Positions 1,852 to 16,639 are shown, counted from the first letter of the stretch. The stretch: 64,000 bases of DNA from Budvicia aquatica DSM 5075 = ATCC 35567 (GCF_000427805.1 NZ_ATYS01000017.1:1-64000); one strand, 5' to 3'. Numbers and translations: made by a program. Notes: generated from the letters alone by a model not told the origin.

Positions 1852-2733
1852 TTACGATTTATACTTCTCTAATAAAGCATCCAAAATCGCTAACGTCTCT
1901 GCATCAGCCTCACCCGAATAATTTGCCGGTCTGAAATGCATCTGAAAGGCCTTAATCACTGTTCGGGTTTGATTATCCATCACGCCACTGTCCGATACCT
2001 GATAACCATATCGATTGAGGTTATTCTGTAGCTGTTTGACATCGACGGCTGAGTGTAACTGACGCTTTGCCAAATACCGCTCAACCGTCGGAGAGTCAGG
2101 CCATGCTCCGATGCCAGCATCGGCCAGTTTCTTCCATGGAAATAACGGACCGGGATCAATTTTGCGTCCCGGAGAGATATCACTGTGTCCGACAACGTTA
2201 ATCGCCGCGATCTGATTGCGCTCAATAATATCGCGCGATAAGGCAATCACCAGCGCTATTTGGTTATCCGTAAAGGGCTGCCAATGGCTCACACCATTCA
2301 CCTTAGATGGGCCCTGATTAACAATTTCAACCCCAACGGAAGTATCATTCAAATTGATTCTTCCACGCCAAAAGCTGGCTCCTGCATGCCAGGCTCGCAT
2401 ATTTTCTGGCACCAACTGCAAAACAATAGCTTTACCTGACTGAATATCTGGGTCGGTATCAACTAAATAGTGAGCGCTGACGTTCTCGCCGGTAAGGATG
2501 TTCAACGATGAAGGGAAATCTTCTGCCGTATAATGAAAAACCAAAAACTGAATTCTTGGTTCTGCCCCCAGAGCACGGTGAGTATCATCAACCCAGTAAT
2601 CACCGCGGTCTTTAAGTGAATGACAACCAGAGATTAAAAACGCCAATACGGCCACAGCCAAAATATATATATACCGCCTGCCACTAAAGGGTAGACCAAA
2701 CTTAACCGCCCCTGACGTTGCCATCATATCCAT
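1852..2733 (-). CDS. amiD: N-acetylmuramoyl-L-alanine amidase AmiD (AmpD-fold lipoprotein with C-terminal peptidoglycan-binding domain)
   Basis: Lipobox LISGC. Amidase_2 motifs are present (HYTA, HAG, GHSD). The C-terminal PG-binding repeat is recognisable. The true start is probably one of the internal Met codons near the N-terminus. Confidence 0.75.
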   Translation of the reverse strand: MDMMATSGAVKFGLPFSGRRYIYILAVAVLAFLISGCHSLKDRGDYWVDDTHRALGAEPRIQFLVFHYTAEDFPSSLNILTGENVSAHYLVDTDPDIQSGKAIVLQLVPENMRAWHAGASFWRGRINLNDTSVGVEIVNQGPSKVNGVSHWQPFTDNQIALVIALSRDIIERNQIAAINVVGHSDISPGRKIDPGPLFPWKKLADAGIGAWPDSPTVERYLAKRQLHSAVDVKQLQNNLNRYGYQVSDSGVMDNQTRTVIKAFQMHFRPANYSGEADAETLAILDALLEKYKS

Positions 2734-3011
2734 GACTTAAATTACCTTGTGTTACTTTTATGCTGATCCTGTACTCATTATGCTCGAAAATGTCATATTT
2801 TGTTTCAAACAACGCTATTTTATTTGCCCTAAGCGATAAATACTCCCCCCTCAAAGGGCAATAAACAGACAGATTGAGCAAAAATTCATCGAACTGCTTT
2901 TTCGTCTGCGATAAATATCAAAAAATGTTCGATTGTCGCTGTCCAACAGCGAATAAACCTGATTTACTACTTCAAGCTTTGTAGCCATTAACCGTTTAAG
3001 AAAGGACTCTG

Positions 3012-3662
3012 ATGACGCTCTTTTTACAAAACTGCCTAGCATTTCCAACGATCATTTTCAGCGGACTACTGATTATAGTCTTACTGTATTGGATTTCTGC
3101 TGCCTTTGGCCTTCTCGATATTGATATTCTTAATATTGATGGCGTCGATATAAATACCGACGTTGACGGCTTTGATGCCCCCGGTGTGGCCGGATTACTC
3201 ATGAAGCTGGGGCTAGCCGGTATTCCGCTGACTATTATTATCACCCTGATAACCTTAACCGGCTGGTTTCTGACCTATTTCAGCACTCACCTAATTCTTC
3301 GCTTTATCGATACTGATATTATTCGTTATCTATTAGGAACTGCCGTATTTATTCTGGCTGGCTTTGTATCAGTTTTAGTGACCTCCATGATTCTAAAGCC
3401 CCTGCGTCCTAAATTAGCTAAGTTAAATCAAGCCAAAACGGTTAAGTCACTACTTGGCCAAATCGCTGAAGTCCGCTCTCCGATTGTTACTGAACAACGG
3501 GGAGAAGCTTTATTAGCCGATGGCGGTGCGGGTTTGATTCTTCAGGTCAGAGCATCTGAAGATGCCGGTATTGTTCGCGGAAATCGCATTGTTTTAATTG
3601 CCTACGACGCTGCAACTCACAGTTACACCGTTGTTAGTGAGGCTGAATTTAACCGACTTTAA
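3012..3662 (+). CDS. yqiJ: NfeD-like inner membrane protein (YqiJ/DUF1449 family), partner of flotillin
   Basis: Several N-terminal TM helices. The C-terminal soluble OB-fold-like segment (GEALLADGGAGLILQVRA...GNRIVLIAYD) is typical of short NfeD proteins encoded upstream of SPFH genes. Confidence 0.6.
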   Translation: MTLFLQNCLAFPTIIFSGLLIIVLLYWISAAFGLLDIDILNIDGVDINTDVDGFDAPGVAGLLMKLGLAGIPLTIIITLITLTGWFLTYFSTHLILRFIDTDIIRYLLGTAVFILAGFVSVLVTSMILKPLRPKLAKLNQAKTVKSLLGQIAEVRSPIVTEQRGEALLADGGAGLILQVRASEDAGIVRGNRIVLIAYDAATHSYTVVSEAEFNRL

Positions 3663-4021
3663 TTCATTTTTCCTTTCCCTGAATAATGGATAGGACTATC
3701 TATGGATGGTGGCTTAAGAATGAATCATGGAGGAGCTAAAATGTCCCAATTCCTTTCAAACAGCCGATGTCTGTCAGCTATCTGTTCGCGTTATACATTT
3801 GCCAAGCCCCGAATTTTCTTATATCGAACATTAACAAGAAAGCAGACCACACTTTTACAAGAAATTTTTCTATATTCGAACGTGAGTATCAGGTTTAGTT
3901 AGACACACGGTTATTAGTCATACTTTTGATCGGTAATATTATCGCATTAGCACACATTAGTTGATGATTACATAAGACTTAGCGGGACAGTAATATCCCT
4001 CAATTACACGGAGAAATACTT

Positions 4022-6262
4022 ATGTCTATGGCAGATTTAATGCCGTTCTTTACCATTGTTGGCGCGGTTATCGTGTTCATTTTGGGATTTTTTGGGTTAT
4101 TCAAAGCGTTCTATATCAAGGTGCCACAGGGAACTGCGCTGATTGTCAATGACATGTCATCTCAACCTAAAGTGCATTTTACCGGCGCACTGGTTTACCC
4201 GGTCATCTACAAAAAAGAGTTTATGCGTATCTCTTTGCTGACTCTGGAAGTTGACCGCCGGGGTAAAGATGGCCTGATCTGTAAGGATAACTTACGGGCA
4301 GATATTACCGTCGCTTTCTACCTGCGGGTTAATGAAACGACTGAAGACGTATTGAAAGTCGCGAAATCTATCGGCGTTGAGCGCGCTTCTGACCATCAGG
4401 CCGTCAGCGTATTATTCAGTGCAAAATTCTCCGAAGCGCTGAAAACCGTCGGTAAACAATTTGAGTTATCTAAGCTATTTGAAGATAGACAAAATTTCCG
4501 CGATCGCATTGTCGATGTGATTGGTAAAGATCTTAACGGCTACGCGCTGGAAGACGTTGCCATTGACTACTTAGAGCAAACGCCAAAAAGCTCGCTCGAT
4601 CCAAACAATATTTTTGATTCAGAAGGTATTCGTAAAATCACTGAAATTACAGCGATTCACAATATTGAAACCAATCAAAAAGAACGCGATCAAGAGCTGG
4701 CAATCAAGAAAAAGAACGTGGAAACACGTGAAGCCAGTCTGGCACTAGAACGCCAGCAGGCCGATGCCGAAGCCCGTCAGCAGCGTGAAATTGAAACAAT
4801 TCGCGCCCGTGAAGCGGCAGAAACGTTAAAAGTAAAAGAAGAAGAGCGCCTGAAAGCAGAACAGGCGCGAATTCAGACCCAACAAGAAATTGAAATCCGG
4901 GAAGAAAACCGCCAGCGTGAAGTTGAAGTCGCTCAGCAAAACCGTACTCGTGCAGTTTCTATTGAAATTGAAAAAGTAACCCGAGCCAGAGACCTTGAAA
5001 TAGTTTCGCGCGAGCGTGAAGTTGAACTTCAACGAATAGATAAAGAAAAAGCGCTGGAAGAAGAGCGTAAAAATATTGCTAACGTGGTACGTGAACGAGT
5101 CGCGGTCGAAAAAACCGTTGCTCAGGAAGAAGAACGTATTAAAGAAGTGCGTATGGTGTCTGAAGCCGACCGCCAGAAACAAGTCACGATTATCCAGGCG
5201 CAGGCCGATGCGGAACAAGACTTAGTCCGTCAGGTTAAACAAGCCGAAGCCGATGAGAACAGCGCTAAGCACAAAGCCTTAGAAATTAGCACCATGGCAC
5301 AGGCAGAGTTAGAAGCAGCCGCCAAGCAGGCCGAGTCGAAAAAACGCATGGCTGAAGGCGTTGAGGCTGAACAGGCCGCTCTGGGTCTGGCAGATGCGCG
5401 TGTACGTCAAGCACAGGCTGAAGCTGAAGAGAAAGAAGGTTTAGTTCAGGCTAACGTTACCGCTGAAAAACTGTTGGCAGAAGCCCGCGGTGAGCAAGAG
5501 AAAGGATTAGCCCGCGCCCGTATTCTGGAAGCTCAGGCAGCGGCAGAAGAGAAACAGGGCCTTGCCGAAGCCCGGGTTCTGGAAGAGAAGCTAACGGCTC
5601 AGGCCCGCGGTGACGAACAACAGGCACTGGCTAACGAAAAACAAGGCCTGGTTGATGCTCACGTATTAGAAGAAAAACTGGCGGCTCAGGCTCGAGGTGA
5701 AGGTCAGTTAGGTGCTGCGCAGGCGGAAGTTGTTCGTCAGCGTCTGAAAGCCGAAGCTGATGGCCTGACTGATAAGTTTACCGCTATGGGGAATCTTAAT
5801 ACCACAGCCCGCGAGCACGAAGAGTTCCGTATGCAACTGGAAAAACACTTCGAGCAAAGCATGGCCTCTATCTCTGCAAATAAAGAGATTGCCAGAGAAC
5901 AGGCAGACGTTCTGGCCGCCGCGCTCAGCAAAACGAATATCGACATTGTTGGCGGCGACGGTAGCTTCTTTAATACCTTCTCTAAAGCCCTTAGCGTCGG
6001 TAAAGCCATTAATGGCGTGGTAGAAAAGAGCCCGGTGGTACAGGATGTGGTACAGAAACTGATGGGAGCAGGTAAAGATGGCCAAAAACTGGATATCGAA
6101 GCCCTTTTACAGAATCCGGAAGTATTGGCGCTGATTCAGCAACTGACATCAGCACCGAAACCATCTGCACCACCGGCTTCGCCAGCGCTGCCACTCGCAG
6201 CACCGGTACCGCCAGCACCAGCACCAGCACCAGCACCAGCACCAAGCATGACTGAAGACTAA
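4022..6262 (+). CDS. yqiK: SPFH/band-7 flotillin-like protein (YqiK family) with extended coiled coil and C-terminal Pro-Ala repeat
   Basis: N-terminal TM segment followed by an SPFH domain. Long E/A/R/Q-rich coiled coil with internal AQARGE repeats. C-terminal (PA)n tail. At 746 aa it is longer than E. coli YqiK (553 aa). Confidence 0.8.
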   Translation: MSMADLMPFFTIVGAVIVFILGFFGLFKAFYIKVPQGTALIVNDMSSQPKVHFTGALVYPVIYKKEFMRISLLTLEVDRRGKDGLICKDNLRADITVAFYLRVNETTEDVLKVAKSIGVERASDHQAVSVLFSAKFSEALKTVGKQFELSKLFEDRQNFRDRIVDVIGKDLNGYALEDVAIDYLEQTPKSSLDPNNIFDSEGIRKITEITAIHNIETNQKERDQELAIKKKNVETREASLALERQQADAEARQQREIETIRAREAAETLKVKEEERLKAEQARIQTQQEIEIREENRQREVEVAQQNRTRAVSIEIEKVTRARDLEIVSREREVELQRIDKEKALEEERKNIANVVRERVAVEKTVAQEEERIKEVRMVSEADRQKQVTIIQAQADAEQDLVRQVKQAEADENSAKHKALEISTMAQAELEAAAKQAESKKRMAEGVEAEQAALGLADARVRQAQAEAEEKEGLVQANVTAEKLLAEARGEQEKGLARARILEAQAAAEEKQGLAEARVLEEKLTAQARGDEQQALANEKQGLVDAHVLEEKLAAQARGEGQLGAAQAEVVRQRLKAEADGLTDKFTAMGNLNTTAREHEEFRMQLEKHFEQSMASISANKEIAREQADVLAAALSKTNIDIVGGDGSFFNTFSKALSVGKAINGVVEKSPVVQDVVQKLMGAGKDGQKLDIEALLQNPEVLALIQQLTSAPKPSAPPASPALPLAAPVPPAPAPAPAPAPSMTED

Positions 6263-6270
6263 TATCCGGC

Positions 6271-6314
6271 GGGCCATCCGTGCAATTGCATTCGATGGCC
6301 CGTTTCTTTTTATT
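6271..6314 (+). terminator. Rho-independent terminator after yqiK-like gene
   Basis: Stem GGGCCATC...GATGGCCC followed by a TTTCTTTTTATTT run. Confidence 0.7.
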
Positions 6315-6452
6315 TAACACATTGTATTTACTAAGATAAGTTCACCCAGAAATAGTGCAGTATCAGGTCAACGGTAAATTTATCTTAGTTAATTTCTCTG
6401 AAAAATCATTATCAGAGTCAGCACGGCTAAAAAATATAATTTTATCAAGGAA

Positions 6453-9400
6453 ATGTTAAACGCCATGTCAGATAACCAAGACAATAATCGCGAACAGGAA
6501 TTACTGGATAACGCCGTTGCAGAAGGCGGTGCCTACGATATTTTACGTAAACGCTTATCTGAACAGGGCCAACAACTCCACGAAAAAGCGAAACAGCTAA
6601 ACGGTCGCCGTCTGGAAGAGTTCGGCAAAAGCCAGATGGACATCATTGGCCGTATCCGTATTCGTACTGAAAATAACTGCGTTGCGCGAGATATTGTCCG
6701 CGTCGGTGAGTGGCTGCTGTTTGGCTATAACGTTTTTATTGGCTTGAAAAAAGAGACGCGCATAGAAGATGTCTTCTCTCTTTATCGCCTGACTGAAAAT
6801 GAGGGCGAATACGACGTTGAACCCGTTGCTTTAACCGGCACCTTCCTGAACATCAACAGCTTTGTTCAGGACTTTAACGAGCTCTACACTTACTATAAGA
6901 ATACCCAGTTACTTCAACTTGTTGAACGTGAAGGAAAACTGCTGGCCAGTTTCCAAATCGGCGAGAGAATTACCGACGTCAGGGTTTTCCGCTGGTCAAT
7001 ATCAAGCGATAAAACTGAAATTAAATATATCGACAACCGCGGTGAACGGGATATCGCCCTGCCTCCGGCCTATGACTTTGAGTGGCATAAAACCACCCGT
7101 GAGAATGCGGTCAATGGCCGCTACTCTCATATGAATATTCTGGATACGGTATTCGTCGAAACGATTGGCGGTGACCTGACGATTAAGTGTGAAAACAACA
7201 CCGAAGACGGCTTGGGAATCTATCGGGAAGCGGTATTAGATAAAACCCAATCTCTGGATGATGCGCAGATTGAATATGCTCAGGCCGGCCCCCTGATTTT
7301 GCTAAAAATATTGCCTTATCGGGAAGAGTCCTGGCGCTATCTGGTTTATAACACCTTATCTCAAACAGCTATGCGTATTGATGCCATAGGGCTGGCCTGT
7401 ATTCAGCTACCGGAAGACCACGGCATTATCTTCCCGGGCGGTTACTATTTACAAAACGGCGAGTATAAGACCTTTGACCAGCCGATGGATGGCATGCGTT
7501 TTCGCCGAATTCGTCGTTCACCAAACGGTGAAGACGTATTATATATTTTCTATGAGCCTAACTTTGGCCGTTTAGCCCTGTTTAACTACAACATGATTGA
7601 ACGTAAGCTACACAATCCGTTGTTTGGCCATGGCTATGCCATGCTGGAAGATGGCCGAATGGTGCTGTTTGAAGGCCAATCGAATGAACCTACCCGTATT
7701 CATCCAATGCAGGTTTGGCAAACGCCCTACTACTCAGATGAATATGCCGCCCTTCAGCCGGCAAAAAATAGCTTTTTTGGCCGAATTGGTAATGCCGAAC
7801 TGGTTCGGGGAATTTCTGACCTCTACCACATCGCCAGAGAGATAGAGCAACAGCAAATATCATCTCAGCTTTATGAAAAACTCAGTCAGGATGCACGCCG
7901 ACTGATCGATATCTACTATTGGCTCAATGATGAGCAGAGCCTGCACGCATCCATCTTACTAAAAGAAATATCGCAAACCGGCGAACTGGTACTGGATGAA
8001 TACGAAAAAGTTGAGAGTATCCGCCGCCAGTCCGAACGGGCAATGAGTGAAGCAACATCTCGCCAAAAACAGCTAATTTTATCCTTATTACCGGACAGCT
8101 GGAGTAACGCTCAGCAGTTTGTTGACGCACTCAATGAGCTTAATGTCCACCGCGGGCAGCTCATCACCCTGCGGGATTATCGCTATATTGACTTAGACCG
8201 ACTCGATGAGATGGAACAACAGCTCACCGAGAGTCAACAAAGAATCTCACTCGCCACGGCTGACTTTTTGGCCAGCGATAAAGCCCTGCTGCCTTTTACT
8301 CAGCAGCTTCAGTCACTGGAAAAGCAGACTCAGGAAGCGACGAATAACGTCCAGCTTAACGAGCCCTTAGCCGGCATGGAAAAAATGTCTGCGGATTTAG
8401 ACATGCTTTCCAATCTGATGGCCTCATTGAAGTTCGAAGATACCATTCAACAAACTCATATTATTGAATCAATATCTGAGATCTATGCCAGATTAAATCA
8501 GGCCCGAGCCCGTTTACAACAGCGCCGCAAAGAGCAAGGTTCAGTAGAGTCTATTGCTCAATTCGGTGCTCAATTTAAGCTATTTAGTCAGGGGATTACT
8601 AACGCCTTAACGCTGGCCAGCGATCCTGAGCGTTGCGATGAGCAGCTTTCCCGTTTACTGGTTCAGTTAGAAGAGTTGGAAAGCCAGTTCAGCGAGCAGG
8701 AAGAGTTTTTAAACGATATTCTAAGTAAACGAGAAGAGTTACTTGAAACGTTTGAAAGCCATAAGCAATCCCTGCTGGATGAGCGCCAACGTAAATCACA
8801 AAATCTGACCGTTGCCGCTGACCGACTGCTCGACAGCCTTCAACGCAGAACCGCTCGATTTAACACCCTTGATGAGCTCAATGCCTTTTTCGCCTCTGAC
8901 CCGCTATCGATTAAAACTCGTGAAATTATTGAACGACTGCGCGGGCTAAAAGACAGCGTCAAAGCCGATGATATTGATGCCAAATTTAAAGCCGCCCGGG
9001 ATCAGGCTATCCGCAGCTTAAGGGATAAATCCGAAATATATGAAGACGGTGGCAACGTCATTAAGCTCGGCCCTCGCCATAGGTTTAGCGTTAATACACA
9101 GGAACTGGATCTCACTATTTTACCTCGCGGGGAACAGCTTTATTTGCATTTAACCGGTACCGATTATCAGGAACCCATTGAAAGTGATGAGCTGGAAACG
9201 CTAAAAGAGTATTGGCAGATCTCGATTGAATCTGAATCACCTGAAGTCTACCGGGGTGAATATCTCGCCTACTCTCTGATTTATGCCGCCAGTAAAGAGC
9301 AAGATGGTCTCACTCTGGACAAACTGATCTCCCTACTCCATGAGCCGGAAGCGCTGGAAAAAACCGTTCGTGATTTTGCCTCACCTCGTTATAAAGAGGG

Positions 9401-11402
9401 ATATGAGAAAGGCATTCACGATCACGATGCCGTTGCCATTCTACAAAAATTAATTCCCGTTGGTGAAAGCGCAGACTTACTGCGTTTTAATCCTTTAGCC
9501 AGAAGCATTGCCGTATTGTTCTGGCAGCATATCCAGAAAGAACCGCTGCCTTCCCTCTGGCCCGAGCGTGCCCGGACCAGCATGAATATTTATCAGCTAT
9601 TTCGTAGCGATGCCGGGCTACAGGATTTACAGGCTGAAATCGAAGCAGACCTAAGCCTGTTTTTGTCTCAGTTCCCCATCGCCTGTCAGCCCTATCAGCA
9701 GGCTCAGGCGGCAGAGTATCTCAGTCTGGCGCTGGGCTGTTCGCCAATTGAATTCAGCTTTAGTAAGTATGCTCGTACCCTGTTCGATAGCCTACAAACT
9801 CAGTTAGAAAAAGCCCATATGTGGGGCGACTTTAATCGTTCTCAACAAAATTTAGGCGATCGTCTGGCACAGCGCTGGCTGCTGGTAGAAAACTGGTTAA
9901 CCGGTATGTGTTCACTTCCTGAGTTTTCAGCGCTGGCAACTTATATACCCGAAGCCGTTGCACTGACACTATTAGATAATCGTGTTGCTGCGCGCTTCAG
10001 CGAAGTAGATTTACACTTTACGGTCACTCAGCTAATGGGTGAACATCCGCGAATTCAGGACAGAGCATTAACCCTGAGCCTGGATGATTATTTTGGCCGT
10101 ATGCGCAAACACCGGAAAGTGTTTATTCCAGCCTACCACCGATATCAGGAACTCAGACAAAACGTTTTAAATCAGCAGCGCAAGAACCTTCGTCTGCATG
10201 AATTTAAGGCCCGCCCGCTAAGTTCTTTCGTGCGTAATAAACTGATTAACGACGTATACCTGCCGATTATCGGTGACAACATGGCTAAACAGATTGGTGC
10301 TCTGGGTGAAGGAAAACGAACCGACCTGATGGGCCTGCTGCTAATGATTTCACCACCGGGGTACGGAAAGACCACCCTGATGGAATATATTGCTAACCGC
10401 CTGGGTCTGATTTTTATGAAAATTAATGGCCCGGCTTTAGGCCATGACGTTCTTTCATTAGATCCTGAACAGGCACCCAATGCTACCGCCCGGCAAGAGC
10501 TGGAGAAGCTGAATCTGGCGTTAGAAATGGGAAATAACGTGATGTTGTATGTGGATGATATCCAGCATACTAACCCTGAGTTCCTACAGAAATTTATTTC
10601 ACTGTGTGACGGTACCCGCCGCATTGAAGGGGTATGGAAAGGCAAAACAAAAACCTACGATATGCGCGGTAAAAAATTCTGCGTTGTCATGGCCGGTAAC
10701 CCTTATACCGAATCCGGTGACGTATTCCGCATTCCTGATATGTTAGCCAACCGAGCCGATATCTATAACTTAGGTGAAGTTCTGGGCGGCATGGAGGAAG
10801 CCTTTGCGCTGAGCTACATTGAAAATAGCCTGACCTCTAACCCGGTCTTAGCGCCGCTAGCCCTACGGGATATGAATGACCTTTATCAGTTTGTCGATAA
10901 AGCAATGGGTAAACCTTTCTCAAATAATAACTTAAGCTATAACTATAGCGACGCAGAAATCAATGAAATCGTTGCCGTGATTGAACGCATTATCATCATG
11001 CGTGATACCGTGCTGAAAGTGAACCAACAGTACATTGCCAGCGCGGCTCAGTCCGACAAGTACCGCACGGAGCCAAGCTTTAAGCTACAGGGTAGCTATC
11101 GCAATATGAATAAGCTCAGTGAGAAAATATCTTCCGTGATGAACCCGGCCGAAGTCCGGCGAATTCTCGACGATCACTACTTAGGTGAAGCCCAACTGCT
11201 AACTCACGGTGCAGAGGAAAACTTACTTAAATTAGCTGAAATTCGCGACTTGATGTCGCCAACTGAAGAAACTCGCTGGCAGCAAATAAAGCATGACTTT
11301 ATGCGCAATAAGGCACTCGGCGGTGATAATGCCGAGGTCGGAGATCGGGTGGTTGCGCAGCTTGCTGATTTAGTTGAAAGCGTTCAGGCCTTGGGTAAAT
11401 AA
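6453..11402 (+). CDS. Giant (1649 aa) soluble coiled-coil protein with C-terminal AAA+ (MoxR/AAA_5-like) ATPase domain; function unknown
   Basis: Uninterrupted 4.9 kb ORF. Walker A is PPGYGKTTL and Walker B is VMLYVDDIQ. Sensor-1-like VVMAGNP and an Arg-rich segment lie in the last ~350 aa. Long Q/E/L-rich predicted coiled-coil stretches occupy the middle. No TM segments. The start may instead be the ATG at 6465 (MSDNQ...). Confidence 0.75.
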   Translation: MLNAMSDNQDNNREQELLDNAVAEGGAYDILRKRLSEQGQQLHEKAKQLNGRRLEEFGKSQMDIIGRIRIRTENNCVARDIVRVGEWLLFGYNVFIGLKKETRIEDVFSLYRLTENEGEYDVEPVALTGTFLNINSFVQDFNELYTYYKNTQLLQLVEREGKLLASFQIGERITDVRVFRWSISSDKTEIKYIDNRGERDIALPPAYDFEWHKTTRENAVNGRYSHMNILDTVFVETIGGDLTIKCENNTEDGLGIYREAVLDKTQSLDDAQIEYAQAGPLILLKILPYREESWRYLVYNTLSQTAMRIDAIGLACIQLPEDHGIIFPGGYYLQNGEYKTFDQPMDGMRFRRIRRSPNGEDVLYIFYEPNFGRLALFNYNMIERKLHNPLFGHGYAMLEDGRMVLFEGQSNEPTRIHPMQVWQTPYYSDEYAALQPAKNSFFGRIGNAELVRGISDLYHIAREIEQQQISSQLYEKLSQDARRLIDIYYWLNDEQSLHASILLKEISQTGELVLDEYEKVESIRRQSERAMSEATSRQKQLILSLLPDSWSNAQQFVDALNELNVHRGQLITLRDYRYIDLDRLDEMEQQLTESQQRISLATADFLASDKALLPFTQQLQSLEKQTQEATNNVQLNEPLAGMEKMSADLDMLSNLMASLKFEDTIQQTHIIESISEIYARLNQARARLQQRRKEQGSVESIAQFGAQFKLFSQGITNALTLASDPERCDEQLSRLLVQLEELESQFSEQEEFLNDILSKREELLETFESHKQSLLDERQRKSQNLTVAADRLLDSLQRRTARFNTLDELNAFFASDPLSIKTREIIERLRGLKDSVKADDIDAKFKAARDQAIRSLRDKSEIYEDGGNVIKLGPRHRFSVNTQELDLTILPRGEQLYLHLTGTDYQEPIESDELETLKEYWQISIESESPEVYRGEYLAYSLIYAASKEQDGLTLDKLISLLHEPEALEKTVRDFASPRYKEGYEKGIHDHDAVAILQKLIPVGESADLLRFNPLARSIAVLFWQHIQKEPLPSLWPERARTSMNIYQLFRSDAGLQDLQAEIEADLSLFLSQFPIACQPYQQAQAAEYLSLALGCSPIEFSFSKYARTLFDSLQTQLEKAHMWGDFNRSQQNLGDRLAQRWLLVENWLTGMCSLPEFSALATYIPEAVALTLLDNRVAARFSEVDLHFTVTQLMGEHPRIQDRALTLSLDDYFGRMRKHRKVFIPAYHRYQELRQNVLNQQRKNLRLHEFKARPLSSFVRNKLINDVYLPIIGDNMAKQIGALGEGKRTDLMGLLLMISPPGYGKTTLMEYIANRLGLIFMKINGPALGHDVLSLDPEQAPNATARQELEKLNLALEMGNNVMLYVDDIQHTNPEFLQKFISLCDGTRRIEGVWKGKTKTYDMRGKKFCVVMAGNPYTESGDVFRIPDMLANRADIYNLGEVLGGMEEAFALSYIENSLTSNPVLAPLALRDMNDLYQFVDKAMGKPFSNNNLSYNYSDAEINEIVAVIERIIIMRDTVLKVNQQYIASAAQSDKYRTEPSFKLQGSYRNMNKLSEKISSVMNPAEVRRILDDHYLGEAQLLTHGAEENLLKLAEIRDLMSPTEETRWQQIKHDFMRNKALGGDNAEVGDRVVAQLADLVESVQALGK

Positions 11403-11407
11403 CCTTA

Positions 11408-11974
11408 ATGAAAGCGTGGATAAAACAACGAGTCTGGATTCTAAGCATACTGACTACCGTGCTAATTATTATACAGTGTATAAATTCAGTTACCGGTGAT
11501 GCTTTAAATAATTTCGGCATACTTCCCCGAACCACTCGGGGACTGGTCGGTATATTATGCGCCCCTTGGCTGCACAGTAACTGGGAGCATTTATTCAGTA
11601 ACTTACCAATATTACTGATCTTAAGTGCGTTATTAATTAGCCAGTCTGTCCGCGATTATATTAAGTCTAGTATTTTTATTATTCTATTCAGCGGCCTTTT
11701 GGTTTGGATTTTTGCCCGTACCGCCATTCATATTGGCGCCAGCGGATGGATTTTCGGACTATGGGCTCTACTACTAGCCAGAGCATTTACCCAGCGTAGC
11801 CTGCTGGATTTTATCTTTGCCGCAGTGGTCTTCATCTATTACGGTGGCATAACATCAGGAATGATACCGGGAACACCCGGTATCTCTTTTGAAGCGCATA
11901 TTGCAGGTGTTATCGCCGGCTTAAGTTATGCTCTGCTAACTCGGAAAAAGCCCCGGATAGAAGTAAGTCCGTAG
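11408..11974 (+). CDS. Rhomboid-family intramembrane serine protease (short 6-TM form)
   Basis: Six hydrophobic helices. Motifs present: HxxxN (HLFSN), GxSG (GASG) and AHxxG (AHIAG). The start codon lies 5 nt after the stop of the giant ATPase gene. Confidence 0.6.
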   Translation: MKAWIKQRVWILSILTTVLIIIQCINSVTGDALNNFGILPRTTRGLVGILCAPWLHSNWEHLFSNLPILLILSALLISQSVRDYIKSSIFIILFSGLLVWIFARTAIHIGASGWIFGLWALLLARAFTQRSLLDFIFAAVVFIYYGGITSGMIPGTPGISFEAHIAGVIAGLSYALLTRKKPRIEVSP

Positions 11975-12255
11975 CGCGGCTAATACGTTTCAAATTTATT
12001 TTATTTAAATGCAAAAGAGTATTTTTTCGAATTAAAACCTATTAATTCCAATAAATGCCGTCATAAAGACTGGATGATATATTACAGCCCTATTTTTAGT
12101 ATTAAATGCTTTATTTTGGCTTGCGATTAAAGCAAACTACCTTAAAAGAGACGGGTATAACGTTAACAAGATATTAACGATGGAAATACTCTGTTCCAGA
12201 TCAAAGAATATATATCGCTGACTTCTGATTATTTGAATTTTGATATTTTTATTTT

Positions 12256-12954
12256 ATGGATAACGTGGATATGGATAATGCTGCACTGGAAGATTATCTA
12301 AAAACAACGCTTGCTGATTTATCATTAAGTCAGTCTGAACGTAATCAACTTCGTGAGCTAGGGCAAACATTAAATCTGGAACAGTCCAGCTTTATGCGTA
12401 ATCGCGCATTTGATTTAGTGAGAGCTCAATTAACATCAGCCCCTGAGGACCTCCAGCCAACATTAAAATGGCTGGAGCTTGTGATCAAAACTCTCGATAT
12501 CAGCAGCATCCAACCCAAAATTAATTCCGCCGCCTATTTCTCCCCGGGTGAAGCCTGCCGGGAGAAAATTCGTTCAATGCTGGCTCAGAGCCGTCAGAAA
12601 GCAGACATCTGTGTTTTCACCATCGCAGATGATGTGCTTACAGAAGCGATTCTAAATGCCCACCAACGAAACGTTCAAATAAGAATAATTACTGATAACG
12701 ATAAATCAGAAGACAGCGGTAGCGATATTGAATATCTGCAAAATAAAGGTATCGCCATCGCGATGGATAATAGCCCATATCATATGCACCATAAGTTCGC
12801 GCTTTTCGATAATAGTTTTCTGCTCAACGGCAGTTTTAACTGGACGCGGAGCGCTTCTCAGCAAAATCAAGAGAACGTGTTAGTAACTGACGATATAACA
12901 TTACTCACCGCCTACCAAAAAGAATTTAATAAACTATGGACGCAGTTTAACTAA
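12256..12954 (+). CDS. Phospholipase D-family (single HKD, Nuc-like) nuclease/phosphodiesterase, cytoplasmic
   Basis: Canonical HxKx4Dx6GSxN motif (HHKFALFDNSFLLNGSFNWTRSA). No signal peptide. The gene is low-GC relative to its neighbours and has an AT-rich upstream region. Confidence 0.7.
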   Translation: MDNVDMDNAALEDYLKTTLADLSLSQSERNQLRELGQTLNLEQSSFMRNRAFDLVRAQLTSAPEDLQPTLKWLELVIKTLDISSIQPKINSAAYFSPGEACREKIRSMLAQSRQKADICVFTIADDVLTEAILNAHQRNVQIRIITDNDKSEDSGSDIEYLQNKGIAIAMDNSPYHMHHKFALFDNSFLLNGSFNWTRSASQQNQENVLVTDDITLLTAYQKEFNKLWTQFN

Positions 12955-13147
12955 TGGAAAATTTCATATTAATGCTGGCTATGGAGGTAAAAAAATCGAA
13001 GACTGCATTTAAGTTTACCGCTAAAGAAAAGGTAGATATACTCCCCGCACAAGGAAGTTTCACTCTACGCAAAGATTGCATAAAGTTCCCTCATTTCGTC
13101 GCGCCCTCTATGCAATTCCGTTACTTTCTCTACAAAACAGAATAAAT

Positions 13148-14518
13148 ATGAATAATAAAATAAAACGAATAACTCTTTGTTTTAGTATTGCGCTAACGTT
13201 GGCGGCCTGTTCTAACCCGCCTTCACGCAAAAACTATGATTATGCACTTTCGCAAGGACAGATTGAACTCGCTCAAAAAATAGCATTAGAAGAAGGCGTC
13301 GCACCGGGTACTGATACCGCGACTGAACTTCTTTGGTCTCTTGAAGCGGGTGCCGTATTACGTATGGCAGATCAGGTAGATCGCTCAACCAAAGTTCTTG
13401 ATGGCAGTGAGTTATTGATTAAAGACAACGAAACGCAAAATCTGGCGTCCTCTGGGCTTAGTCAAGCTGCATCAATGATTGTTAATGATAACGTGATGAG
13501 CTACACCCCGCGTGTATACGATCGGGTTATGGTTAACACTTATAAAGCATTAAACTTCTGGCAACAGGCTAACTTTAGCGATGCTCGCGTAGAATGGAAC
13601 CGGGTTGACGATCGTCAACGTCGTGCTGCGGAATATTTCTCTAAAGAAATTAATGCTCAAAAATCAGAAGTTAAAAGTAATAAAATCGGCGACAGTTACT
13701 CTCAGTCAATGGAAGCCCTTGAAGGATCAGGTATTGATGTATCTAAATGGGCACCTTATGATGGTTACATTAACCCGGCATCCCTGTATTTGCATGGCCT
13801 GTACTTCTTAATTAACAGCGAAAGTGCGGCTGATTACACCAAAGCAAAAGAGAGTCTAAAACGCGCTTACGCACTGACTCGCAGCAACCAAATTCGTGCT
13901 GATATTGCACTCGCTAATAAAGGCCGTACCGTTGCTCCCGGCGTTTGGGTTATTTTTGAGAATGGTCTGGCAGCCAGAAAAACTGAACGGCGTATTGATT
14001 TACCTCTGATTCTGGTTACAAAAAGCGTGGCCTATACCGGTATGGCTTTGCCCGTTCTGGAATCAGGTAGCCCGGCTTACCCTTACCTTTCGGTAAATGG
14101 CTCTCAAAAAACCGAGTCGTTTGCCAGTATGGATAAGATCATTGAGGGTGAGTTTAAGACTGAGTTTACCGGCATTTTGATCAAAGAGATCTCTCGGGCC
14201 ATCTTAAAAACCGCGGCTCAGGCGACGATGATGAATTCGGATAACAGCACGGTTAAGCTTATCGGCGCATTAACCGGTATTGCACAAGCCGTCAGTACAC
14301 AGGCTGATATTCGTAGCTGGCATGCTTTACCTTATGATTTCCAGGTTGCTTACGTTAAGTGGCCGAAAAGCGGACAAATTCAAATTAGTCCACCTGGAGG
14401 CGAAGCAATTAACGTTGATTTACCCGCAACGCCTCAACCCGTTGTCGTTTATGTGCGAGTGCTGAACGCTGGTTCTGCTCCACAAGTTAGCGTACTAACC
14501 AGTAAAAATGCGATGTAA
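13148..14518 (+). CDS. Predicted envelope lipoprotein (456 aa), function unknown
   Basis: Lipobox LTLAAC after a short basic N-terminus. The start was reassigned to the internal ATG at 13148; the ORF-track start lies further upstream. Confidence 0.55.
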   Translation: MNNKIKRITLCFSIALTLAACSNPPSRKNYDYALSQGQIELAQKIALEEGVAPGTDTATELLWSLEAGAVLRMADQVDRSTKVLDGSELLIKDNETQNLASSGLSQAASMIVNDNVMSYTPRVYDRVMVNTYKALNFWQQANFSDARVEWNRVDDRQRRAAEYFSKEINAQKSEVKSNKIGDSYSQSMEALEGSGIDVSKWAPYDGYINPASLYLHGLYFLINSESAADYTKAKESLKRAYALTRSNQIRADIALANKGRTVAPGVWVIFENGLAARKTERRIDLPLILVTKSVAYTGMALPVLESGSPAYPYLSVNGSQKTESFASMDKIIEGEFKTEFTGILIKEISRAILKTAAQATMMNSDNSTVKLIGALTGIAQAVSTQADIRSWHALPYDFQVAYVKWPKSGQIQISPPGGEAINVDLPATPQPVVVYVRVLNAGSAPQVSVLTSKNAM

Positions 14519-14575
14519 TGGACTATATCCAAAACGCATCGTGCTGAACTTTTAAACTGTATTGAGAGCTTTATA

Positions 14576-15190
14576 ATGAATATTTTTAATAGAAAAACAT
14601 TTCTTGCCGCTGCAGTAGCGCTGTCTTTAGCTGGCTGTGCACAGGAAGGTGCTTATTACGTAGATAGTTCTTCTGATAATGTTGCCGTTATGGGCCTGGA
14701 CTATAAAGACTTCGAAATGGCTGCTTCTAGCATGGTTGAAGATATGCTGAGCTCAGACTTACTGGTTCACCCACAGGGCGGCCGTTATGTTTTAACCGTT
14801 ACCGGCATCGTCAATGATACTGACCAACGTATCGATACCGACCAGTTAACTAAAAAAATCCGTACCAGCCTGTTAAATTCCGGTCGTTTTGTTGTGACTA
14901 CCGCAATTAGTGCCAACGGCCCGGAAGACGAGATGACGCGTAAAGTTCGTCAATTGCGTAACTCTAAAATGGTTAACCAAAAAACAGTTAAGAAAGATGG
15001 CCGCGTAATTGCCCCAGACTTCTCATTAACGGGTAAAATCATTCAGCAAAACCAACGTGTGAATTCAAAAACACAGCAAGTTGAATACTATTTCCAGTTA
15101 ACGTTAACCAATTTGGATGACGGTTTAGCCTATTGGGAAAAAGAGTATCCAATCATCAAGCGTGGCGACAATCGCACTGCAAGTTGGTAA
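14576..15190 (+). CDS. Predicted lipoprotein (204 aa), LpoB-like/TolB-N-like fold suggested
   Basis: Lipobox LSLAGC. The V/T-rich beta pattern (YVLTVTGIVNDTD...RFVVTT) resembles LpoB/CsgG-like modules. Confidence 0.5.
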   Translation: MNIFNRKTFLAAAVALSLAGCAQEGAYYVDSSSDNVAVMGLDYKDFEMAASSMVEDMLSSDLLVHPQGGRYVLTVTGIVNDTDQRIDTDQLTKKIRTSLLNSGRFVVTTAISANGPEDEMTRKVRQLRNSKMVNQKTVKKDGRVIAPDFSLTGKIIQQNQRVNSKTQQVEYYFQLTLTNLDDGLAYWEKEYPIIKRGDNRTASW

Positions 15191-15268
15191 GGTCGGCGTT
15201 GCACCGTATGCCTGTTTAATCAACATACGGTGCGATTTATATTATTTTTACCCATTAGGGCTTTCTTA

Positions 15269-16639
15269 ATGAAAAAATGGATATTGGTACTAGTAGGTCT
15301 TTTGGCAGTTTCACCTGCAGTGTATGCAAAAATTGAAACTGTTGATGCTCAGGGATATGGCGAGACCTACGAAAAAGCGGTTGATGCTGCTTTGGCTGAT
15401 GCCGTTCGTCAGGTTAACGGAATGACCGTAAGTACTCAGTCAGAACGCGCTGGTGATTATGTTCGGGTTAAAGACAAATCTGATGCCACAATTGAAGGAA
15501 AAGGCACCTACGTTCAAGATACTAAGAACAAAGATGACTCTTTTCTAGGCAACAAAGGTGTAGACAGTACGCTGACCGAGAATTTAGATGTGAATGTTGG
15601 TGGTAACGCTAACCGTGACTTAACCGTAAACACCGGTAAAAGTGCACAAATTAACACTCGCAGCTCCGGTACGGTAAAGGGTTATAAAGTTAAATCCCGT
15701 GACTGTGACCCAAAAGGATGTACCGTTCTCCTGAGCGTTGATATTGATAAAGTTGAGCGTAAAACCTCTCAGGCTAATTCTAAACGCGATCGCCTGGCGG
15801 TCATTACTACCGGTAACCGCAGTCGTTCAGCCTTTGCTAATCAGCTCCGCCAAGAAATCACTGACCGTATCGTTCAGTCGCAGCGTTTCACCGTATTAGA
15901 CCGCAGCACAACCAACGATAAAGCCTTCGAACAGGAAGAAGCCTTCTTGGAAGGTCGCCTGAATAATTCGGTTGATATCAAGCAAGCTGCCCTTCCGGCT
16001 GATTACCTATTGGTTATCAACGTGACGGAAGCGGGTGTTAATACTAAGACTAAAGTGACCAGCGTTGACTTAACCGGTGAATTTGACGTAACCCGCACCA
16101 GCAAAACTAAAGTGACCGTGCGTTATTCCCTGCTTGAAGCGGCCACTCACGGCATTCAATGGTCTGACTCTAGTGTATTTGAGCAAGGTGGCCGTTATTT
16201 AGAAACCGCCCGCCAACAAATCAGCGACGTTATTGCCGATAAAATTGTCAACAAACTGACTCCGGCGAAAGTCGTCAGCGTTTCTAACGGTCAAGTCATT
16301 ATTAACCGTGGTGAAGCAATGACCTACTTAGGCGACCGTTTTGATATTTATTCTCAAGGCGAGGAGCTGATAGACCCTGATACGGGTGAAACCTTAGGCG
16401 CAACAGAAGAAAAAGTAGCGACTATTGCTATCGATAGTGTTAAAGACAAAATCTCTTATGGCATTGTTGAAAGCGGAAAAATTGAGTCTATCGAAAAAGG
16501 CGCAATTGCCCGACTGGCTCCACCTCTGCCGGTAGAGAAAAAAGCGACCGATAAAAAGGTGACTAAGACCAAAACAACGCCAAAACCTAAAGCTGATGCA
16601 CAGAAGCTGGGTGATTCTGGCGGCGTTTTCCTTAAATAG
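15269..16639 (+). CDS. Secreted periplasmic/outer-membrane-associated protein with C-terminal CsgG-like domain
   Basis: Sec signal MKKWILVLVGLLAVSPAVYA. The central region has a CsgG/LPP20-like pattern (RLAVITTGN...RFTVLDRS...ADYLLVINVTEAG). K/T-rich C-terminal tail. Start taken at the internal ATG at 15269. Confidence 0.5.
   Translation: MKKWILVLVGLLAVSPAVYAKIETVDAQGYGETYEKAVDAALADAVRQVNGMTVSTQSERAGDYVRVKDKSDATIEGKGTYVQDTKNKDDSFLGNKGVDSTLTENLDVNVGGNANRDLTVNTGKSAQINTRSSGTVKGYKVKSRDCDPKGCTVLLSVDIDKVERKTSQANSKRDRLAVITTGNRSRSAFANQLRQEITDRIVQSQRFTVLDRSTTNDKAFEQEEAFLEGRLNNSVDIKQAALPADYLLVINVTEAGVNTKTKVTSVDLTGEFDVTRTSKTKVTVRYSLLEAATHGIQWSDSSVFEQGGRYLETARQQISDVIADKIVNKLTPAKVVSVSNGQVIINRGEAMTYLGDRFDIYSQGEELIDPDTGETLGATEEKVATIAIDSVKDKISYGIVESGKIESIEKGAIARLAPPLPVEKKATDKKVTKTKTTPKPKADAQKLGDSGGVFLK

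Follow-up and report, generated by a model that had tools for sequence, protein, structure and literature searches.

A short, probably active rhomboid protease encoded directly behind the AAA+ ATPase gene of an NfeD-flotillin-AAA+ operon in Budvicia aquatica

We analyzed a 64,000-nucleotide (nt) stretch of DNA from Budvicia aquatica DSM 5075 = ATCC 35567 (GCF_000427805.1, NZ_ATYS01000017.1:1-64000; hereafter the window, with positions counted from its first letter), in which a short gene for a rhomboid intramembrane serine protease begins five nucleotides after the stop codon of a giant ATPase gene. The rhomboid gene is the fourth of a same-strand cluster that encodes, in order, an NfeD/YqiJ-like protein, a flotillin-like protein, a DUF3686-AAA+ ATPase, the rhomboid and a PLD-like protein. 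The explanation that we favor, with moderate confidence, is that the rhomboid is a catalytically competent minimal enzyme and an optional, co-expressed accessory of a conserved envelope or membrane-stress operon. The features referred to below lie along the window as follows.

3012-3662, + strand: first gene of the operon, a YqiJ/short-NfeD-like membrane protein of 216 amino acids (aa)
4022-6262, + strand: flotillin/SPFH-like protein, 746 aa, assigned from the names of its homologues and from PF01145 in truncated homologues
6465-11402 (or from 6453, giving 1,649 aa), + strand: giant ATPase with DUF3686, DUF7902 and AAA+ domains, 1,645 aa
11393-11396, + strand: weak Shine-Dalgarno (SD)-like GGGT within the last ATPase codons, 11 nt before the rhomboid ATG, -4.1 kcal/mol
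11403-11407, + strand: intergenic spacer CCTTA, 5 nt, from the ATPase stop to the rhomboid start
11408-11974, + strand: rhomboid intramembrane serine protease gene, 188 aa, six transmembrane (TM) segments, Pfam Rhomboid
11588-11590, + strand: codon of His61, in TM2
11600-11602, + strand: codon of Asn65, in TM2
11741-11743, + strand: codon of the catalytic Ser112, in G110-A-S112-G113 (GASG)
11897-11899, + strand: codon of the catalytic His164, in A163-H164-I-A-G167 (AHIAG), followed by G171 (GxxxG)
11975-12255, + strand: AT-rich spacer, 280 nt, from the rhomboid gene to the PLD gene
12256-12954, + strand: PLD/HKD-superfamily protein (PLDc_2), 232 aa, without a predicted TM segment, Pfam E = 3.5e-29

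In the window sequence the ATPase open reading frame (ORF) ends with TAA at 11400-11402 and the rhomboid ATG stands at 11408, exactly where an earlier sequence-only reading of this DNA had placed them. An earlier in-frame start for the rhomboid is impossible because its frame carries a TAA at 11396-11398, upstream of the ATG; and since the N-terminus MKAWIKQRV is kept in the homologues of a 33-sequence family alignment, the ATG at 11408 is well placed. The tight junction also occurs at other loci and is not peculiar to the window. At 24 ATPase-rhomboid loci, with start codons elsewhere set by alignment to the window rhomboid, the distances from ATPase stop to rhomboid start were -4 (11 times), -11, -1, +3, +3, +5 (the window), +6, +7, +10, +14, +15, +28, +41 and +310 nt. 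The -4 junctions are four-nucleotide ATGA or GTGA overlaps, and most of them have very weak SDs, many of -0.2 to -3 kcal/mol; the 310-nt gap belongs to one Xenorhabdus and is accompanied by a strong SD. Tight or overlapping junctions are conserved across Enterobacterales, Pseudomonadales and Cellvibrionales.

The rhomboid matches the Pfam family Rhomboid (PF01694 / MEROPS S54) over residues 47-180, scoring 73.1 bits where the gathering threshold is 22.6 (E = 3.4e-20). Its 188 aa are the ordinary size of the minimal six-TM form, and the short-rhomboid family is large (1,526 representative clusters at E <= 1e-10). In addition to the GASG serine and the AHIAG histidine, TM2 carries H56-SNWE-H61-LFS-N65, that is, the H-x4-H-x3-N motif of the oxyanion-stabilizing His and Asn. 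Ser112, His164, His56, His61, Asn65, Gly167 and Gly171 are invariant in all 24 ATPase-linked copies, and Ser112, His164, His61 and Asn65 are kept in 32 of the 33 family members at a mean identity of ~50%. The sole exception in that alignment is P0034, from an uncultured Moellerella sp., which has Ser112Gly (GAGGW) and represents either a sequencing error or a recent natural pseudoprotease; the rhomboid of Moellerella wisconsensis (L045) retains the catalytic Ser. In the L1 loop, Arg41 is invariant in the 33-sequence alignment and is preceded by an invariant Pro40, not by the Trp of the WR motif; among the ATPase-linked rhomboids Arg41 is conserved in 23 of 24, with Leu in L008.

The family profile was required to reach a known structure, because a PDB search with the single rhomboid sequence returned no match. 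The 33-member profile aligns over its full length with Haemophilus influenzae GlpG (2NR9; E = 0.005) and places GASG/Ser112 over GLSG, AHIAG/His164 over AHISG, and H56-x4-H61-x3-N65 over HLSNLHILFN. An AlphaFold2 model built from the family alignment (pLDDT 90.0, pTM 0.86) has six long helices and a short L1 region, with helices at residues 3-28, 43-54, 59-77, 81-102, 112-129, 132-149 and 161-177; in a Foldseek search of the PDB, GlpG structures take all of the first 34 ranks (TM-scores 0.62-0.76), and iRhom structures lie far behind. Basic residues at both ends of the protein (K2, K6 and R8 at the N-terminus, R-K-K-P-R at the C-terminus) are consistent with an N-in/C-in topology like that of GlpG cores. 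With the H. influenzae protein (2NR9) and the E. coli core, the window rhomboid shares a six-TM core of ~190 aa, the GxSG Ser at the start of TM4, the AHxxG His with GxxxG in TM6, the TM2 H-x4-H-x3-N motif and a conserved Arg in the L1 loop. It differs from GlpG in that the identity is only 15-19%, the L1 motif is P-R and not W-R, the cytoplasmic N-terminal domain is missing, and the gene stands in an operon together with flotillin/AAA+ or PspA genes. Among longer rhomboid relatives no informative domain fusion emerged, one having ARM-like repeats and the others no second Pfam domain. Taken at the level of sequence and predicted fold, these data make it highly probable that the rhomboid is an active protease. 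The sequence-only reading had likewise preferred a working enzyme to an iRhom-like pseudoenzyme, and the GxSG Ser, AHxxG His and TM2 HxxxN on which it relied are present and are not lost on closer alignment with the family or with GlpG.

The sequence-only reading had also described the rhomboid's partner as a giant ATPase, which is accurate as far as it goes, but the context was missed: the protein is the DUF3686-AAA+ component of an NfeD-flotillin-AAA+ membrane-stress operon. The product of the first operon gene has three predicted TM segments (residues 14-32, 62-80 and 110-128) and no Pfam match, and a homologue occupies the same position at every assessable ATPase locus, P. aeruginosa included. 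The P. aeruginosa orthologue, PA14_16160, has been called a short NfeD (PMC13086221), and the family has been described as YqiJ/YuaF-type with three TM segments (PMC11237479). Besides a single TM segment near its N-terminus (residues 9-27), the flotillin-like protein has a long coiled coil and a tail rich in Pro and Ala, whose C-terminal end is the repeat …PAPAPAPAPAPS. Databases list its homologues as 'flotillin family protein', 'YqiK' or 'SPFH domain-containing', the truncated ones carry PF01145 (Band_7), and its orthologue PA14_16180 is PaFlo3 (PMC13086221). The full-length flotillin-like protein matched no Pfam family even at E = 10 and had no PDB sequence match; probably its Glu/Ala/Arg/Gln-rich coiled coil triggers the composition filters.

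The ATPase matches DUF3686 (E = 1.6e-202) and also DUF7902, AAA and AAA_5, and with P. aeruginosa BacE/PA3728 (P0210) it shares 67% identity. Translation of the ATPase probably begins at 6465, because close homologues all begin with MSDNQ at that position, four codons past the ATG at 6453; the SD of the 6465 start (AAGGA) has -5.4 kcal/mol versus -2.6 at 6453. The ATPase is unusually conserved for its size, the 67% identity between Budviciaceae and Pseudomonas extending over 1,645 aa. NCBI and Pfam name the family 'DNA repair ATPase' (DUF3686), whereas the gene lies in an NfeD/flotillin operon, often with PspA, at every locus examined; the name looks unfounded and a poor fit with this membrane-system context.

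The closest described system is bacABCDEF of P. aeruginosa (PA3732-PA3727), which encodes a DUF2170 protein, PspA, a short NfeD, PaFlo3, the ATPase and a sixth product and forms one transcript by reverse transcription-PCR (RT-PCR) that is derepressed in a bacA mutant (PMC10948618, PMC13086221). It corresponds to the CesT/Tir(DUF2170)-PspA + YqiJ/NfeD + band-7/flotillin + novel AAA+ (+PLD) operon of Ravi et al. 2024, and a sigma-54 promoter has been proposed upstream of bacA. The window has NfeD-like, flotillin-like, DUF3686-AAA+ and PLD genes in the same order as bacABCDEF. It differs in having neither the DUF2170-PspA dyad nor a sigma-54 site, and in having the rhomboid gene, lacking in P. 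aeruginosa, between the ATPase and PLD genes. The triplet of NfeD/YqiJ-like 3TM protein, TM-band-7/flotillin protein and DUF3686-AAA+ ATPase that marks a bac-type operon is present on one strand, and the dyad at the operon head is missing; no PspA or DUF2170 homologue was found anywhere in the 64-kb window, and the sigma-54 pattern TGGCAC-N5-TTGCW had no match with <=2 mismatches in 2734-3011. Abbreviated forms of the operon without PspA are widespread (PMC11237479), and by its gene content the window operon is such an abbreviated form of the bac/PspA-associated NfeD-flotillin-AAA+ system (Ravi et al. 2024; Wallart et al. 2024). Upstream of it lies an AmpD-like amidase gene on the opposite strand. 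A megablast search of all complete E. coli genomes returned no counterpart of the operon. A defense-system assignment was rejected: PADLOC had no match for the rhomboid, flotillin-like or NfeD-like proteins, only a trivial P-loop match for the ATPase, and otherwise only generic PLD matches. An identity with the 'Arc2' antagonism-resistance cluster was likewise rejected, Arc2 being PA4317-23.

To describe the distribution of the junction, we used an ATPase-centered scan with one genome per species, which yielded 80 loci with 10-kb flanks. This survey and the rhomboid-centered one described below each comprise the best 80 matches of a pattern-based scan and are not random samples, and their counts are not phylogenetically independent. 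At every locus that reaches far enough upstream, the ATPase gene is accompanied by the NfeD-like and flotillin-like genes, and the DUF2170-PspA dyad is present in 42 of the 80. Among the 76 loci with enough downstream sequence, the rhomboid gene lies directly downstream of the ATPase gene in 22 (29%), where absence from a locus does not mean absence from the genome; 14 loci have both rhomboid and PLD genes, 8 the rhomboid only, 12 the PLD gene only and 42 neither. The rhomboid is a facultative member of the NfeD-flotillin-AAA+ operon. Rhomboid-bearing loci come from Budviciaceae, some Morganellaceae (Providencia, Moellerella and one Xenorhabdus), many pseudomonads, Entomomonas, Cellvibrionales and Oleiphilaceae, and loci without the rhomboid from Xanthomonadales, Gilliamella, P. 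paraeruginosa and P. aeruginosa. Pseudomonas sp. L003 has the same gene order as the window, with an ATGA overlap at the junction. At one locus of an uncultured Pseudomonadales (L062) the rhomboid gene is divergent, at 5179-5682 on the - strand, just upstream of the DUF2170 gene. The PLD gene is present in 14 of the 22 rhomboid-bearing loci versus 12 of the 54 without rhomboid (loci L007-L086; uncorrected for kinship), and the two genes tend to co-occur as accessory genes. Apparent flotillin-ATPase fusions at L026 and L047 were rejected, their translations containing in-frame stops.

We also scanned metagenome contigs with the rhomboid alignment, which gave 80 loci, 69 of them with enough upstream sequence. 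Directly upstream of the rhomboid gene are the ATPase gene in 19, DUF2170-PspA in 29 and neither in 21, so that 48 of the 69 sampled relatives lie in one of two operon types. The second type is exemplified by L148:4532-9678, with the order DUF2170, PspA_IM30, Rhomboid, DUF2491, DUF350, DUF1190, GSP_synth; other loci with the rhomboid gene behind PspA are L109, L116, L122 and those of L124-L170 that belong to this second type. We take the L148 order to be that of E. coli yjfIJKLMC with a rhomboid gene inserted behind the PspA paralogue, and the operon to be the second class that Ravi et al. distinguish among CesT/Tir-PspA operons. The rhomboids behind PspA form one clade in a neighbor-joining tree, sister to the pseudomonad copies behind the ATPase. 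Unlinked rhomboids of Proteus, Morganella and Photorhabdus nest among the linked copies in a tree. Pairwise rhomboid and ATPase distances correlate (Mantel r = 0.90, 0 of 2,000 permutations), which fits vertical co-inheritance of the two proteins. Morganella has the ATPase operon elsewhere in its genome, without the rhomboid. At that Morganella morganii locus (L090:11210-11815), a Pfam-less ORF of 201 aa stands 270 nt behind the ATPase gene in place of the rhomboid; its length equals that of the stand-alone M. morganii rhomboid, and the insertion sequence elements nearby suggest that the locus has been rearranged. In a marine subclade of unlinked relatives (L111, L113, L131, L141, L146, L150), a gene for a 183-aa pseudouridine synthase (PF00849) lies 1-13 nt downstream of the rhomboid gene on the same strand, a conserved pairing.

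The best anti-SD pairing before the rhomboid ATG is that of the GGGU at -4.1 kcal/mol, a duplex with an internal loop. The SDs of the three upstream operon genes are stronger (-5.3, -6.6 and -5.4 kcal/mol). The median for long ORFs of the window is -4.3 kcal/mol, a noisy value for which the first start codon of each long ORF was taken, and the rhomboid SD is close to it. A GAGGA or AAGGA stands in the corresponding place in Leminorella and Limnobaculum. The earlier statement that the rhomboid has no convincing independent ribosome-binding site is thus roughly right in that the SD is weak and below those of the upstream genes, but an SD is present and near the window median. Promoter prediction gave no sigma-70-like site on the + strand within the 3' part of the ATPase gene; the nearest predicted + strand sites are at 3714, 3915 and 12163. 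No unusual RNA structure that would occlude the rhomboid start was found over 11340-11450 (z = +1.2), and no Rfam family matched within 2500-13200. In P. aeruginosa, RT-PCR shows that the transcript extends past the end of the ATPase gene into the one behind it (PMC10948618).

The rhomboid and ATPase genes have the sequence attributes of a coupled pair, with the same strand, a 5-nt spacer and a weak SD at 11-nt spacing. Because no internal promoter is predicted, the SD is weak and overlaps recur at other loci, the rhomboid gene is very probably co-transcribed with the ATPase gene, and translational coupling is plausible; the coupling appears to be evolutionarily maintained. Co-transcription together with at least partial coupling is, in our estimate, likely. 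The claim of a fixed expression ratio does not follow: a 5-nt spacer cannot show it, coupling being a dependence on upstream translation and not a ratio, and nothing in the sequence fixes the stoichiometry.

ATGA/GTGA overlaps at 11 of the 24 junctions, many with SDs of -0.2 to -3 kcal/mol, are the classical signature of termination-reinitiation, and the three upstream operon genes have SDs that are stronger and closer to their starts than the rhomboid SD. On these grounds we consider it possible but rather unlikely that the rhomboid is translated independently from its own weak SD, the 5-nt spacing then being ordinary operon packing without coupling, even though such translation would accord with a GGGU near the window median, with better SDs at the same place in close relatives (AAGGA, GAGGA), with the 310-nt gap and strong SD of Xenorhabdus, and with a start that is not sequestered by RNA structure. 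Nor does the protein look like a dead, non-proteolytic relative of iRhoms or derlins that serves as a membrane scaffold or receptor for the ATPase or PspA. Rhomboid-fold pseudoproteases are common in eukaryotes, iRhom structures are among the weaker structural matches, and one relative (P0034) has Gly for the catalytic Ser; this account is nevertheless very improbable, given catalytic residues that are invariant in every linked copy and kept in 32 of 33 family members despite ~50% identity, and active-site motifs that align with those of GlpG. A rhombosortase that processes GlyGly-CTERM proteins is more remote still and effectively refuted: TIGR03902 is the only NCBIfam model touched, but its 38.4 bits fall below the curated cut-off of 84, and the genomic context has no GlyGly-CTERM theme.

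A functional tie between the active, co-expressed rhomboid that we favor and the operon's system is, in our judgment, somewhat better than an even proposition, and several observations weigh against the favored explanation. The rhomboid is missing from ~71% of ATPase loci (54 of 76), including that of P. aeruginosa, in which the operon has been investigated; orthologues of Proteus hauseri, Morganella morganii and Photorhabdus, 53-57% identical, stand alone in unrelated contexts; and ~30% of the sampled relatives have other neighbors, such as genes for a pseudouridine synthase, an M90 peptidase or an Rce1-like protein. The distance correlation may be explicable by shared species phylogeny alone, the rhomboid SD is weak yet close enough to the window median for independent initiation to be possible, the N-terminal TM segments of the flotillin-like and NfeD-like proteins look alike in loci with and without the rhomboid, and the two rhomboid-bearing operon types share no TM protein. 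The scattered occurrence, the stand-alone orthologues and the varied contexts, along with the size of the short-rhomboid family and the role of bacterial rhomboids in quality control of orphan membrane proteins (PMC7232013), would all suit a general housekeeping rhomboid with a GlpG-like role that stands behind the ATPase gene by chance and shares its transcript without a specific tie. What makes this unlikely, in our view, is that one clade recurs in this position in three orders, with 4-nt overlaps, and that it also lies directly behind a PspA paralogue in a second PspA-type operon, the two types accounting for 48 of 69 relatives; the unlinked copies nest within the linked ones, Morganella keeps its ATPase operon elsewhere, and repeated hitch-hiking into two related stress operons is improbable.

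We propose that the rhomboid, as an accessory of the operon, would be transcribed together with the ATPase gene and that much of its translation would be due to ribosomes arriving directly from termination on the ATPase ORF, or would begin at a weak SD that those ribosomes expose. The enzyme would then cut a TM segment in the membrane within a stress or remodeling system. Among its operon partners, TM segments are found only in the NfeD-like (three) and flotillin-like (one) proteins, with none in the ATPase or the PLD protein, and the best candidate substrates encoded in the operon would be the flotillin-like TM anchor and the first TM segment (TM1) of the NfeD-like protein. The flotillin-like TM segment is probably N-out/C-in because its N-terminus is short and acidic and a Lys follows the helix. 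N-out/C-in is the orientation of TatA, the known substrate of the Providencia rhomboid. Bacterial rhomboids with known substrates include Providencia AarA, which acts on the N-out/C-in TM segment of TatA, and Bacillus YqgP, which acts on MgtE and cooperates with the AAA+ machine FtsH; AarA (7-TM) and YqgP (with extra domains) belong to other rhomboid subfamilies, and their substrates are not known to be products of a flotillin/PspA operon. Near the outer end of its TM segment, the flotillin-like protein has a Pro...GxG motif, in loci with and without the rhomboid alike. No sequence signature marks the flotillin-like or NfeD-like protein as a substrate, because both are alike with and without the rhomboid. 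A third candidate would be a damaged client membrane protein that is confined by the SPFH scaffold, dislocated by the AAA+ ATPase and clipped by the rhomboid. This client-protein model is at least as likely as an operon-encoded substrate, because the TM segments do not differ and the two operon types have no TM protein in common; any particular substrate is doubtful.

A more specific form of the proposal, which we offer tentatively and regard as improbable on present evidence, is that the rhomboid clade is the dedicated intramembrane protease of YjfJ-type PspA/flotillin membrane-repair systems and a bacterial counterpart of SPFH-rhomboid-AAA+ hubs. The flotillin/NfeD scaffold would confine either a TM anchor belonging to the system itself or a client protein that has been damaged; the confined protein would be pulled on or dislocated by the DUF3686-AAA+ ATPase and clipped in the bilayer by the rhomboid, so that the complex is released or reset during envelope stress. 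In eukaryotes, RHBDL4 cooperates with the erlin SPFH complex and p97 (PMC9437926). PARL is placed in a hub with SLP2 and YME1L by Wai et al. 2016, as cited in PMC7966987, and m-AAA-driven dislocation is reported to permit rhomboid cleavage of Ccp1 by Tatsuta et al. 2007, as cited in PMC12994072. The PARL-SLP2-YME1L, RHBDL4-erlin-p97 and m-AAA/prohibitin-Pcp1 assemblies have in common with the window an SPFH scaffold, a rhomboid and an AAA+ protein, here joined by operon structure. They differ in that the window AAA+ protein is the unrelated DUF3686 type (beta-propeller/coiled-coil) and has no protease domain; the likeness is an analogy only, and the rhomboid is dispensable in most lineages. 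In Pyrococcus, the long-NfeD protease PH1510 cleaves its operon partner, the stomatin PH1511, according to Yokoyama and Matsui 2005 as cited in PMC13086221. PH1510 (long NfeD/STOPP) resembles the window rhomboid in being a membrane serine protease whose operon also encodes an SPFH protein and an NfeD-type partner; it differs in that its ClpP-fold domain is fused to NfeD and cuts the soluble C-terminal part of the stomatin, whereas the window protease is a separate intramembrane rhomboid. These SPFH/AAA+ precedents are analogies and not tests.

Several further observations concern the end of the rhomboid gene and the region beyond it. The strongest terminator-like hairpin of the region, at 11863-11894 (GATACCGGGAACACCCGGTATC; 9 bp with 6 G-C pairs, then TCTTTTG), falls within the coding sequence of the rhomboid, ~90 nt ahead of the stop codon, and might attenuate read-through toward the PLD gene. 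The 280-nt spacer downstream contains a promoter-like site at 12163-12190 and, at 12109-12139, a 31-nt block (CTTTATTTTGGCTTGCGATTAAAGCAAACTA) that is common to three Budviciaceae genera, including Limnobaculum and Leminorella, and may be a regulatory site for the PLD gene. Probably the PLD gene has its own expression signals in this spacer; in Pseudomonas it stands directly behind the rhomboid gene without a long spacer. The PLD protein, whose NCBIfam NucT matches are below the cut-offs, is the counterpart of P. aeruginosa BacF, and the P. aeruginosa PLDc_2 gene lies directly behind the ATPase gene. For the PLD ORF, two ATGs five codons apart are possible starts, at 12256 and 12271 (MDNVDMDNAAL…), which are both kept in relatives and have poor SDs (+0.4 and -3.1 kcal/mol, respectively). 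Downstream of the PLD gene, 13076-16639 holds three consecutive lipoprotein-like genes, probably a separate envelope module, whose products are a Pfam-less protein of 480 aa with a lipobox-like signal, an LpoB-like protein (PF13036, 14576-15190) and a Pfam-less protein of 469 aa.

As an enzyme the rhomboid is ordinary, and the NfeD-flotillin-AAA+ operon is already known. The rhomboid-bearing variant of the operon appears to be undescribed so far, as does the preference of one rhomboid clade for two PspA-type operons (48 of 69). Neither the Ravi et al. paper nor the bac papers mention a rhomboid, and a full-text search that covered few subscription journals found no literature linking a rhomboid to this operon. 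That very few bacterial rhomboids have known physiological substrates is a long-standing gap. The place of this clade in two related types of envelope-stress operon narrows the search for substrates to one pathway, with two TM segments as concrete candidates. A bacterial counterpart of the SPFH, rhomboid and AAA+ combination of mitochondria and the endoplasmic reticulum is suggested as well, one that would be open to genetic dissection in Pseudomonas, Providencia or Budviciaceae.

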